Of a stretch of DNA of 53,477 nucleotides, positions 8,845 through 30,309 are shown in pieces. The DNA comes from Myxococcota bacterium (GTDB taxonomy: Bacteria; Myxococcota; Myxococcia; Myxococcales; Myxococcaceae): NCBI GenBank assembly GCA_049322255.1, contig JBMORE010000183.1, positions 1 to 53,477 on the forward strand, in the 5' to 3' direction. The position numbers were made by a program, and so were the translations under genes. The notes beneath the pieces are model-generated. The model was not told the DNA's origin and made no database searches. It saw nothing but the letters and a program-made list of their open reading frames with translations. Each line of letters begins with the position of its first letter. Position 1 is the stretch's first letter.

Positions 8845-10890
8845 ATGCGCGACTTGAAGAGCACCCGCCTTCCGTCCACCGGCCGCTGGCTGCGCTTACG
8901 GGTGGCGCTCATCGGAATCGCCTTCCTCCTCCTCTTGGGGAGCGTCTTGGCCCGCGCGGTGACGCTCCAGGTGTTCGAGCGCGACAAGCTCAAGAAGTTC
9001 GCCCAGGACCAGTACCTGCGTCACATCGAGATTCCCGCGCGGCGGGGAGACATCTTCGATCGCAAAGGGGCGCCGCTGGCCCAGAGCGTGGAGGTGGACT
9101 CCATCTGGCTCGACCCCTCGCAGGTAGACGACTTGACGGCGGCCTCGAGGAAGTTGGCCGCCGCGGTGCACGCCGACGTGGGCGAGCTTCACGCCCGGGT
9201 GTCGAAGGGAAAGAAGTTCGTCTGGGTGAAGCGGCAGGCCACTTCTTCCGAGGTGGCGGCGGTGAAGGCGCTGGCGCTGAGCGGCATCGGCTTTGCCAAG
9301 GAGCCGCGCCGCTTCTATCCCCAGCGGGAGCTGGCGGCCCATGTCATCGGGGTGGTGGGCACCGACGGGCACGGGCTCGACGGCCTGGAGCTGGCCTTCG
9401 AGGACGAGCTGTCCGGCCAGAGCGCGCGCCTGGCTGGGCTGCGCGACGCCAAAGGCCGAAAGCTCCTCACCGCCGAGGTGGGCGATGCGCGCGCGCAACG
9501 CGGAGCCTCGGTGGTGCTCACCCTCGATGGGCACCTGCAGCACCTGGCGGAGAAGGCGCTCACCCGTGCCGCCGAGGAGTCGCGCGCCGCCGGTGGGGTG
9601 GTGGTAGTGCTCGACCCGCACACCGGCGAGCTGCTTGCGCTGGCCAACTACCCGCGTTTCAACCCCAACGCCCCCGCGGGCGTCACCCACGACCACATGC
9701 GCAACCGCGCCGCGCTCGATACCTTCGAGCCGGGCTCGACCTTCAAGGCCTTCGTGGTCGCCGCCGCGCTGGAGGAGAAGGTGATTTCCCTCCATGAAAC
9801 CTTCTTCTGCGAGAACGGCCGCTGGAACCTCGGACGTCACACCATCAACGACACCCACCCCTACGGGGAGCTCACCGCGGCGCGCGTGCTGCAAGTTTCC
9901 TCGAACATCTGCGCGGCGAAGATTGCCCAGAAGCTGGGGCGGGAGCGGCTGGTCGACGCGTACGCTCGCTTCGGCTTCGGGGAGCGGGTGGGGCTGGCGC
10001 TTCCGGGGGAGGGGAAGGGGGTCATCCCGTTTCCCAAGGCCGAGGTGGCGCTGGCCACTCAGGCCTTCGGTCAAGGGCTGACCGCCACCGCGGTGCAGCT
10101 GGCGGCAGGTTACGGGGCGCTCGCCAACGGCGGAGTGTTGATGCGGCCGCACCTGGTTTCCCGGGTGGTCGATTCCGACGGGCTGGTGCTCCTCGACCAG
10201 CGGCCCGCCGAGGTGCGGCGGGTGGTGTCGGAGCGCACCGCGAAGGCCGTGGTCTCGATGCTCGAGGCAGTGGTGACCCGCGAAGGCACCGCTCCCCAGG
10301 CATACCTGGCGGAGTACCGGGTGGCGGGCAAGACCGGGACTGCGCAAAAGGCCGACCCGGTGGCGCGCGGGTACTCGGACAAGCGCATCGCCTCTTTCGT
10401 GGGCATCGTTCCCGCCAACGACCCGCGTCTGGTGGTGCTGGTGGTCATCGACGAGCCGAAGACCGACGTCTACGGCGGCCTGGTGGCTGCGCCTGCTTTC
10501 AAGGAAATCGCCGCGGCGGCGATGCCTTATTTAGGGGTCCCCCCTCTCCCTCTGGGAGAGGGCAAGGGTGAGGGGCGTCAATTACCACCCCTCACCCCAA
10601 CCCTCTCCCACAGGGAGAGGGAGAGGGAGAGGGGGAGCCCGCTGGCCGACGCCTTCGCCAAGGTCGAGGCGATGGAGGCGGTCACCGAGCGCACGGAAGA
10701 GGGCAGTGTCCGGGTGCCGGATCTTTCTGGCCTTGGCGCTCGCCCTGCGGTCAGCAAGCTGCTAGCCGTGGCCCTGGAGCCTCGCCTGTCAGGGTCGGGG
10801 CGGGTGGTCGGACAGACTCCCCTGCCGGGCAGCCTTGTGGGAAAAGGGGCTCGTGTAACGGTGGAGTTGGCAGGGGCTTTGCCCCCTTGA
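8845..10890 (+). CDS. ftsI: Class B penicillin-binding protein FtsI with C-terminal PASTA domain
   Basis: RGDIFDR, EPGSTFK (SxxK), SSN and KTGT motifs; VPDLSG PASTA; repeat-derived insertion in the linker. Confidence 0.95.
   Translation: MRDLKSTRLPSTGRWLRLRVALIGIAFLLLLGSVLARAVTLQVFERDKLKKFAQDQYLRHIEIPARRGDIFDRKGAPLAQSVEVDSIWLDPSQVDDLTAASRKLAAAVHADVGELHARVSKGKKFVWVKRQATSSEVAAVKALALSGIGFAKEPRRFYPQRELAAHVIGVVGTDGHGLDGLELAFEDELSGQSARLAGLRDAKGRKLLTAEVGDARAQRGASVVLTLDGHLQHLAEKALTRAAEESRAAGGVVVVLDPHTGELLALANYPRFNPNAPAGVTHDHMRNRAALDTFEPGSTFKAFVVAAALEEKVISLHETFFCENGRWNLGRHTINDTHPYGELTAARVLQVSSNICAAKIAQKLGRERLVDAYARFGFGERVGLALPGEGKGVIPFPKAEVALATQAFGQGLTATAVQLAAGYGALANGGVLMRPHLVSRVVDSDGLVLLDQRPAEVRRVVSERTAKAVVSMLEAVVTREGTAPQAYLAEYRVAGKTGTAQKADPVARGYSDKRIASFVGIVPANDPRLVVLVVIDEPKTDVYGGLVAAPAFKEIAAAAMPYLGVPPLPLGEGKGEGRQLPPLTPTLSHRERERERGSPLADAFAKVEAMEAVTERTEEGSVRVPDLSGLGARPAVSKLLAVALEPRLSGSGRVVGQTPLPGSLVGKGARVTVELAGALPP
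10542..10621. repeat. Inverted doublet of the 34-bp palindromic element inside ftsI
   Basis: CCCTCTCCCtctGGGAGAGGGcaaGGGTGAGGGG (10542-10575), 12-nt spacer, then CCCCTCACCCcaaCCCTCTCCCacaGGGAGAGGG (10588-10621). Confidence 0.9.
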
Positions 10891-10897
10891 GGAGTCG

Positions 10898-12400
10898 ATG
10901 AAGCTCAACGAGCTACTGTCAGGGGTGGGGGTCGAGCCAGCGCCGACGCCCAAACACAAGGTGGAAGTCACCGGCGTCGCACAGGACTCGCGCGCGGTGA
11001 AGCCGGGAGACCTGTTCGTCGCTCTCCCGGGCACCAAAGCGGACGGCACCCAGTTCGTCGCCGAAGCGGTGCAAAAGGGCGCGGTCGCGGTGTTGACCGA
11101 AAAGCAGATCGAGCCTTTGGGCAAGGTGCCCATCTTTCACGCGACCTCGGCGCGCAAGGCGCTGGCGCTCATCGCCGCGAACTTCTACGGCAAGCCCGCC
11201 GACGAGCTGACCCTCTTGGCCATCACCGGCACCAACGGCAAGACGACCACGAGCTACTTGCTCGAGTCGATTTGCGCTGCGGGGGGAGCCTCCACCGGGC
11301 TGTTGGGGACGATCGAGTACCGGTTTGGCGGCAAGGTGCTGCCGGCGCCGCACACCACGCCCGACGCGCTGACCCTGCACCGCATGTTCCGCGAGATGGT
11401 GGACGCAGGCACCGACACGGTGGTGATGGAGGTGTCCAGCCACGCGCTCGCGCAAGACCGGGTGTACGGGCTCACTTTCCGCGCGGCGGCCTTCACCAAC
11501 CTGACCCGAGACCATCTCGACTACCACAAGGACCTCGAGGAGTACTTTCAGGTCAAGCGGCGCCTCTTCGTGGAAAACCTCTCTCCGGGCGGGGTGGCGG
11601 TGGTGAGCGGCGAAGACACCTATGCTGGCCGCATCTACAACGAGCTGCGCAACAGCAAGCGCATGGCGTGGAAGTTCTCGCGCTTGGGCAACGGCGAAAT
11701 CTCCGCCGCCGCGGTCGAGCTGACGACCAAGGGAATCAAGGCGACCTTGAAGACGCCGGCTGGGGACATTCCGGTGCACAGCCAGCTGGTGGGCGCCCAC
11801 AACCTGGACAACATTCTCGCCGCCGCCGGGCTGGCGCTGTCGGCGGGTTACTCGCGGCGTGATGTGCAGGACGGCGTCGAGCGAGTGACCCGGGTGCCCG
11901 GCCGCATGGAGGCCTTTCACGGCAAGGAGCTCGCCGTGCTGGTCGACTACGCCCACACCGACGACGCCTTGCGGCGCGCGCTGGAGTCGGCCCGCGGGCT
12001 CACCAAGGGCCGGGTGCTGGTGGTGTTCGGCTGCGGCGGCGACCGCGACGCGGGCAAGCGCCCCTTGATGGGCCAGGCCGCAGGGGAGGGTGCCGACGTT
12101 CCCATCGTCACCTCCGACAACCCGCGCTCCGAGGACCCCGACGACATCATCACTCAGATTCTCCCTGGGCTGGAGAAGGCGGGCCTGCGGCGGATGTCGG
12201 CGGCCAAGGCGCGCTCCGGGGAGAAGGGCTACCTGGTCGAGCCCGATCGCGCAGAGGCGATCGAGCTGGCGGTGTCGCTGGCCAAGCCGGGCGAGGTGGT
12301 GCTCATCGCCGGCAAGGGCCACGAGACCTACCAGCAGGTCGAGGGCGAGAAGCTCCCCTTCGACGACCGGGAACAGGCGCGCAAGGCGCTGGGAGGCTGA
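10898..12400 (+). CDS. murE: UDP-N-acetylmuramoyl-tripeptide synthetase MurE
   Basis: GTNGKTT, MEVSSH, DHLDYH, DYAHT, DNPR (DAP-type) and AGKGHE motifs. Confidence 0.97.
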   Translation: MKLNELLSGVGVEPAPTPKHKVEVTGVAQDSRAVKPGDLFVALPGTKADGTQFVAEAVQKGAVAVLTEKQIEPLGKVPIFHATSARKALALIAANFYGKPADELTLLAITGTNGKTTTSYLLESICAAGGASTGLLGTIEYRFGGKVLPAPHTTPDALTLHRMFREMVDAGTDTVVMEVSSHALAQDRVYGLTFRAAAFTNLTRDHLDYHKDLEEYFQVKRRLFVENLSPGGVAVVSGEDTYAGRIYNELRNSKRMAWKFSRLGNGEISAAAVELTTKGIKATLKTPAGDIPVHSQLVGAHNLDNILAAAGLALSAGYSRRDVQDGVERVTRVPGRMEAFHGKELAVLVDYAHTDDALRRALESARGLTKGRVLVVFGCGGDRDAGKRPLMGQAAGEGADVPIVTSDNPRSEDPDDIITQILPGLEKAGLRRMSAAKARSGEKGYLVEPDRAEAIELAVSLAKPGEVVLIAGKGHETYQQVEGEKLPFDDREQARKALGG

Positions 12401-30272: not shown

Positions 30273-30276
30273 TCGG

Positions 30277-30309
30277 CCCCTCACCCCCAACCTCTCCCAA
30301 GGGAGAGGG
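30277..30309. repeat. Palindromic element (33-bp variant) between convergent genes
   Basis: CCCCTCACCCccaaCCTCTCCCaaGGGAGAGGG; the only fully intergenic copy; possible terminator role. Confidence 0.85.

Follow-up and report, generated by a model that had tools for sequence, protein, structure and literature searches.

Repeat copies in the dcw genes of the window

We analysed a 53,477-nt stretch of DNA from a Myxococcota bacterium (contig JBMORE010000183.1), hereafter the window, in which genes of the division and cell wall (dcw) cluster carry copies of a short repeat, and we compared this repeat with its other copies in the same genome (G000), where two of them enclose a DUF559 gene, and in the genomes of relatives (G001, G005 and so on). 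A preliminary description of the window had listed seven copies of a 34-bp palindromic repeat, all of which were present at the positions given below. The palindrome, however, makes up only 21 of the 33–34 bp, and the remainder consists of a linker of 3 nt followed by a third arm rich in G. By its sequence, the repeat is the published BoxC/PIT/TM_ECO motif, a predicted hairpin plus third arm capable of forming an intrastrand triplex. TM_ECO, earlier known as BoxC or PIT, is defined as CCCTCNCCC N3-6 GGGNGAGGG N3 GGGNGAGGG (Holder et al. 2015, PMC4666352), and this pattern was matched exactly by six of the seven window copies and by 171 sites in G000. A pattern of tail plus arm was found 12 times in the window at ≤3 mismatches, compared with 0.18 matches expected, and none of 100 shuffles reached 12. 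No Rfam family was detected at the gathering score in the 7 loci scanned.

Two of the copies lie in ftsI (8845..10890, + strand), a gene for a PBP3-like transpeptidase according to its PBP-family matches and its operon position. Copy 1 (10542..10575, +), with the hairpin and then the third arm on the plus strand, is read as PLPLGEGKGEG and copy 2 (10588..10621, −) as PLTPTLSHRERE; they form the left and right arms of a tails-inward doublet with a 14-bp spacer, situated in the variable linker past the transpeptidase domain. Additional GAGAGG repeats follow copy 2 up to about position 10633, and the 96 nt of the doublet region were predicted to fold into a single stem (−37 kcal/mol, z −6.3). The genes murD (14953..16386, +), ftsW (16383..17567, +), murC (18706..20139, +) and murB (20413..21354, +) were assigned using NCBIfam; the genes present likewise suggest Myxococcota as the source. 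Copy 3 (15771..15804, +) encodes about residues 273–287 of MurD, copy 4 (17514..17547, −) lies in the variable C-terminal tail of FtsW, 5′ of a retained EVAA-stop end, and copy 5 (20096..20129, +) constitutes the C-terminus of MurC and faces copy 6 across 296 bp. The latter (20424..20457, −) lies in what is likely the N-terminal coding part of murB, whose start is likely the ATG at 20413, with a GTG at 20380 as a possible alternative; it is read as PSPPPSPKGRG, and translation gave the MurB peptide MTLRPSPPPSPKGRG. Only the ftsI and murD copies are therefore gene-internal, since those of ftsW, murC and murB sit at gene ends. Translation also confirmed the four inserted peptides that had been named before. 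Copy 7 (30277..30309, −) is intergenic as described, where an enoyl-CoA hydratase gene and a response-regulator gene converge with their 3′ ends, but it is degenerate, with a shifted linker and a 2-nt loop, and is the only one of the seven that does not fit the published TM_ECO pattern. No transposase family was found among the 36 other open reading frames (ORFs) of the window (Pfam, E ≤ 1e-8), in agreement with the earlier view.

Genome-wide distribution of the repeat

Globally, G000 (4.85 Mb, 99.6% complete; 4243 genes from our own gene caller) contained 289 repeat copies at ≤4 mismatches, 165 of them perfect, and a block-shuffled G000 contained none at the same threshold. The repeat is thus a dispersed non-autonomous family, as had been supposed, and a patchy one, being present in 6 of 31 relatives. 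Pairs of copies closer than 300 bp were oriented with their tails inward in 42 of 43 cases, and 40 were doublets with 8–29-bp spacers. The spacers and inner flanks of the doublets share a loose GAGCTGACGC / GAATTGACGC motif; the unit would therefore reach ∼10 nt past the third arm, making the whole doublet nearly one long palindrome. The arms deviated from the consensus by 1.7–3.5% while the loops varied, in line with the selection on structure that had been proposed, but just 1 of 2601 stem pairs showed a compensatory change, which points to sequence-specific constraint within G000 instead.

Compared with random placement, copies were enriched 5.7-fold between genes (143/289) and 4.3-fold at gene ends, which 56 of the 289 overlapped. 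The terminal 90 nt of genes held as many as expected (44/289, 1.0-fold), and the gene interior was depleted 4.5-fold (46/289, 0.22 times random), the internal copies lying in frame in 37 unrelated genes. Altogether, 90 of 289 copies lay wholly within gene calls. Of the 143 intergenic copies, 109 had co-directional neighbours, 21 convergent and 9 divergent ones, with no strand preference between co-directional genes (61 versus 48). Internal copies were read in five of the six frames and never in the sixth, which contains a TGA. For 40 of the 56 copies overlapping a gene end, this TGA, located in the third arm, supplied the stop codon of the gene. The 40 genes concerned end in a common PSPxGRGxG-like C-terminal tail.

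The 35 invaded genes outside the dcw cluster were functionally mixed, and six had no Pfam match at 1e-12. Judged by our reading of their Pfam domains, they include CysG-like, MoaA-like, HypF, cytidylyltransferase (KdsB-like), Lhr helicase, LolA and TamB genes, together with genes of the TsaD family, a secretin, TonB receptors and others. Several copies can share one gene: hypF (G000:C144:35011-37353) holds four (a doublet, a single copy and one at the 3′ end), the cysG-like gene two and the Lhr helicase gene three. Copies less than 10 kb apart were more alike at the variable positions (7.8 versus 7.0 of 18), a hint of local spread, and the genome-wide clustering of sites was marginal (p 0.03–0.26, depending on distance).

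A DUF559 gene between two repeat copies

The preliminary description had suggested a search for a nuclease gene flanked by the repeat, and such a gene was found. A strong DUF559 gene (G000 C47:17866-18220) lies between two tails-inward copies 373 bp apart, so that the whole cassette (C47:17834-18272) has the geometry of the 40 doublets with the gene as spacer. The encoded protein of 118 aa matched PF04480 at 128 bits (cut-off 20.6) and 3hrl with an E-value of 2e-23. Residues D54, E65, D67, H71 and D80 are intact and are conserved in at least 82 of 84–85 relatives, and the protein is predicted to be a Vsr-like PD-(D/E)XK nuclease. It consists of the bare domain, with no N-terminal DNA-binding extension, intron or intein. 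Two weak DUF559 matches elsewhere in G000 (C174 and C82) had no repeat copy beside them. A Y1 transposase of the kind that accompanies repetitive extragenic palindromic (REP) sequences, RAYT, was ruled out as partner, as PF01797 had no match in this 99.6% complete genome.

The association extends across many phyla. Among 96 DUF559 loci (the best 80 of 213 from a contig search and 16 from a second search), 45 had a type-B-like copy on both sides, which faced tails inward in 38 of the 45, and 72 had DUF559 ORFs of ≤200 codons. Using a looser hairpin test, C-rich hairpins flanked both sides of 68 of 94 loci, two contig-edge loci having been dropped, compared with 0 of 82 control window pairs taken 640–800 nt away. 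The flanking variants were specific to their genomes: the G013 variant had 110+121 strand matches in its own genome and no match in the four others tested, the G009 type occurred in 50 copies in G009 only, and the G005 variant had 73 copies in G005 versus 0–4 in four other genomes. A flanked DUF559 cassette is also present in G058. Seven more distant relatives of the protein (34–39% identity; alphaproteobacterial, five of them from Bradyrhizobium) had no flanking hairpins of the type searched; with upstream DNA that looks coding, they may represent a domesticated or fused branch. The murC–murB interval contained no DUF559 remnant in either the window or G005.

Escherichia coli K-12 encodes a protein, YcjD, that is 48% identical to the DUF559 protein of G000. 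At its 3′ end, ycjD has a degenerate copy of the repeat; about 170 bp downstream lies TM_ECO no. 9. We found no link between BoxC and DUF559 in the open-access literature, judged mostly from titles and abstracts. The repeat itself belongs to a known family.

Inserted peptides and insertion sites

The proposal that in-frame insertion creates new peptide segments was borne out by the orthologues, which lack the inserted peptides outside a single genus. They were absent from 14/14 FtsI, 14/14 MurD, 15/15 FtsW, 12/13 MurC and 10/11 MurB orthologues, the exception being G005. As these orthologues are distant (about 47–84% identity), the junctions are unreadable at the nucleotide level, and we compared protein lengths. 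Against five orthologues each, MoaA showed a net gain of 14–15 and KdsB of 13–15 residues, which would fit a clean insert of 40–45 bp. Net gains were smaller for the epimerase (2–4 residues), the HypF single copy (6–9) and the HypF doublet (16–17, in 7/9 orthologues), and ranged from 0 to 9 residues for MurD and from −11 to 17 for FtsI, so native codons were apparently often lost at or after insertion. When the first 6 nt of the hairpin end were compared with the orthologous sites (background 1.9), ftsI scored 4.2, kdsB 3.2 and murC 3.15, and seven others scored 1.0–2.5; two HypF copies were unscored. The target-site duplication typical of miniature inverted-repeat (MITE) or insertion sequence (IS) elements was not evident in the 40 doublets.

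The positions taken by coding copies are ones that proteins tolerate. In an AlphaFold model of MurD built from 26 sequences (pLDDT 88.6; a single-sequence model reached only 39.6), the insert appeared as a low-pLDDT turn, residues 278–282, between two beta strands. The remaining dcw copies are in the variable linker of FtsI or at termini. Related repeat variants also occur in relatives: in the HypF of G030, inserts resembling PSPTLPRCAGEG occupy the loop that holds the HypF doublet in G000.

The dcw cluster in its genomic context

The repeat had been thought to be oddly concentrated in one essential operon. This did not hold up, given 289 copies genome-wide, 37 unrelated genes with internal ones and a dcw cluster that was not significant at the level of the genome. 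The six dcw copies amount to five sites in 19 kb, compared with 0.98 expected under uniform placement and 0.56 once gene structure is taken into account (nominal p 3e-4, for a region picked after the fact). An equally extreme window was present in 26 of 300 simulated genomes (genome-wide p about 0.09), a window on contig C13 with DUF58 and vWA genes was slightly more extreme than dcw, and five sites in 9.9 kb were reached by 505 of 2000 simulations with uniform placement.

Among 27 relatives, the dcw span contained variant repeats in G005 (4), G013 (2) and G023 (3) and none in the other 24. A search with a fixed 3-nt loop had given 0 copies in the dcw loci of 15 relatives, and the G005 variant was revealed later by a looser pattern. 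Four genomes with the same type-B repeat (G007, G015, G017 and G021; 30–336 copies) had none in dcw. Pooled by hand, seven other repeat-bearing genomes had 4 dcw copies where about 1.5 would be expected (p about 0.07); G023, with no genome-wide count, was excluded from the pool. A copy at the 3′ end of murC was found in 3 of 208 family genomes (G000, G005 and G058; the sensitivity of the pattern is uncontrolled), which by a rough estimate is near the expectation from the 3′-end bias. In a tree of four proteins, G000 was sister to G018 (support 0.93) and G005 to G001 (support 1.0); because neither sister has the insert, the murC inserts of G000 and G005 are likely parallel events. Overall, a mild preference for dcw may exist, and the dcw copies are best read as passengers that the host tolerates, forming one local cluster among several and neither targeted nor adaptive.

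In G005, its own variant lies at the same murC codon and is paired with a murB copy, the pair bracketing about 370 bp (G005:C1:704210-704640). Inside this pair, an MshEN domain (Pfam E 2.6e-23) is fused in frame to the C-terminus of MurC, a repeat-bounded domain capture. G058 has a second variant copy on the minus strand about 1.4 kb upstream of the one at its murC end.

Other features of the window

A second, unrelated repeat element of ∼215 bp (20157..20371, no strand assigned) is nested between the murC and murB copies. It has 45-nt inverted arms of GGGAGC runs and inner runs of GGGAAC and TACCCG, and similar elements are present on at least a dozen other contigs, the one at C22:64556 adjoining another BoxC copy. 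Between mraZ and rsmH/mraW, an ORF of 126 aa (7221-7601) had no Pfam match at 1e-8; by eye, it appears STAS-like. Two tandem genes for Kelch-repeat proteins (512 and 426 aa; 38597-41423) were missed by the gene caller used.

Discussion

The repeat copies and the DUF559 gene probably form a pair resembling REP sequences and their RAYT, with a PD-(D/E)XK nuclease as the enzyme that spreads the repeats in trans; we hold this account with somewhat better than even confidence. BoxC/TM_ECO copies would be the ends, themselves non-autonomous, of a small selfish cassette made up of an inward pair with the DUF559 gene between them. The nuclease, if active, would recognise the hairpin and third arm on single-stranded DNA and nick there, and host repair would then place single ends, doublets or whole cassettes elsewhere in the genome. 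Such insertions would occur without target duplication, often at the cost of a few native codons. They would land widely, those in coding sequence lasting only in linkers, loops and termini, where they can persist because five of the six frames are free of stops and the sixth provides a usable TGA. A broader version of this proposal is more tentative, and we would put it forward somewhat short of even confidence: an undescribed two-component selfish DNA, in which a minimal Vsr-like DUF559 protein recognises triplex-forming ends and moves singles, doublets and cargo cassettes with neither transposase nor target duplication, rewriting loops and C-termini, fusing captured domains (as in MshEN–MurC of G005) and revisiting the same sites across lineages.

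Several points weigh against a nuclease-driven spread. No DUF559 match was found in G007 (258 copies, 86% complete) or G017 (183 copies, 99% complete), and ycjD of E. coli K-12 has no repeat copy upstream. The DUF559 counts overstate independence, because the loci are best matches and include close kin, and the pairs in the test of neighbour similarity are likewise non-independent. Target-site duplications were not in excess over permuted flanks in the 40 doublets (k=2–7), although old copies could have lost them. The zero count of internal copies in the TGA frame arises partly by construction, because a stop would split the gene call, and our own gene caller overlooked some genes. We know of no joining activity in a lone 118-aa nuclease, so host repair must be invoked, and neither movement of the repeat nor activity of the protein was observed.

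The rival readings overlap in part and are not fully exclusive. Host recombination, stalled replication or an unrelated enzyme could be what spreads the repeat; DUF559 would then be cargo for which the repeats serve as ends or as sites of recombination. The repeat-rich genomes G007 and G017, with no detectable DUF559, would fit this reading, although mobile elements ordinarily may lose their autonomous gene after a burst, which could explain both. The inward murC/murB pair, moreover, holds an MshEN domain in G005 and a different repeat element in the window, so that cargo other than DUF559 can sit between the arms. TM_ECO has been linked to local deletions by Holder et al., who suggest mechanisms of replication or repair (PMC4666352). 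Flanking of one protein family on both sides across many phyla, by variants specific to their genomes, is hard to obtain by passive capture, however, and on balance we regard the cargo explanation as possible but doubtful. Targeting of dcw or other essential genes, or selective retention there, would account for the nominal enrichment of five sites over 0.56, for the dcw variants of G005, G013 and G023, and for the recurrence at the same murC codon in G005, which is no sister of G000, and in 3/208 family genomes. The simulations and the C13 window, the four type-B genomes with no dcw copy, the pooled excess of only 4 over about 1.5 and the mixed functions of the other invaded genes all speak against it, and we consider targeting unlikely.

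Alternatively, the repeats might be regulatory or structural elements of the host (terminators, mRNA stabilisers or triplex sites) under selection, with the coding copies as spill-over. Their strong intergenic and 3′-end bias, the 109 of 143 intergenic copies between co-directional genes, and the conserved arms with variable loops would suit such a role. Yet the repeat is present in only 6/31 relatives, strand use between co-directional genes is even, and E. coli PIT elements are reported to act neither as promoters nor as terminators and to leave no triplex footprint in vivo (PMC4666352), making this explanation quite improbable. Finally, coding copies could be assembly artefacts at repeat junctions, as contigs from a sequencing run possibly made from the source sample end within three of them, namely the first ftsI copy and those of ftsW and murB. 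Other contigs of that run, however, span the second ftsI copy and the copies of murD and murC; loops and linkers vary from copy to copy, and the reading frame stays open through all six in dcw. At each of the five coding sites, the sequence to either side is orthologous, in frame or in order, which makes an artefact very unlikely indeed.

The dcw cluster is the least special part of these findings, as in-frame repeats in housekeeping genes have already been described for REPs and for Rickettsia palindromic elements (RPEs). In G000, the repeat adds new protein sequence to a measurable extent: 37 proteins have received internal peptides from it, and a further 40 owe it their final residues and stop codon. 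Although BoxC was already known in the 1990s, it has neither a function nor a mobilising enzyme assigned to it. Since a candidate partner exists in E. coli K-12 (ycjD, beside TM_ECO no. 9), the question is testable in a laboratory strain.

Comparison with known systems

The closest known relative of the repeat is BoxC/TM_ECO itself, which shares the C-rich arm, loop, G-rich arm, 3-nt linker and G-rich third arm, includes a type with a 3-nt loop, forms inverted pairs and is patchy between relatives. Oligonucleotides of E. coli TM_ECO were shown by CD and NMR to form an intrastrand triplex in vitro, with no footprint of one in vivo, and all 23 copies in E. coli K-12 are intergenic, with no link to mobile elements found in the account given there (PMC4666352). 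Here, in contrast, gene calls wholly contain 90 of the 289 copies, and a DUF559 gene sits between two of them facing inward. The terms 'nuclease', 'Myxo' and 'ycjD' are absent from the main text of that paper, whose supplementary genome list may name Myxococcota (PMC4666352). For Enterobacter sp. 638, 100 occurrences of the same hairpin have been described (PMC2869309).

REP, REPIN and BIME sequences with their RAYT also occur as singles and inverted dimers, are mostly intergenic or at 3′ ends, often supply stop codons, are in some cases in frame and flank one enzyme gene (PMC3733652). G000, however, has no Y1/RAYT gene, the flanked gene is a Vsr-like DUF559 and the repeat has a purine third arm. 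The GTAG tetranucleotide tag of REPs was not found; a CGTC-containing flank past the third arm occurred in a minority of copies (TGACGC in 19 and GACGTT in 8 of 289). The system would therefore work like a REP/RAYT pair yet is not one, because the defining transposase is missing. The main text of Di Nocera 2013 does not contain this repeat sequence, and its supplements may list intragenic copies (PMC3733652). RPEs are alike in inserting in frame into many unrelated conserved genes and adding peptides; by description they are set apart, RPE-1 being ∼150 bp long with a conserved peptide (PMC10969869), whereas the repeat described here has a unit of about 33–45 bp, uses five reading frames and lies mostly outside coding sequence.

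On the enzyme side, DUF559, 3hrl, Vsr and 3r3p, the homing endonuclease I-Bth0305I (EDxHD), form one PD-(D/E)XK group (PMC3239194, PMC3424549). The DUF559 protein of G000 differs from I-Bth0305I in being a bare 118-aa domain, with no intron or intein, that is bracketed by DNA repeats. Because I-Bth0305I shares the PD-(D/E)XK group of DUF559, a Vsr-like fold has already served a mobile element.

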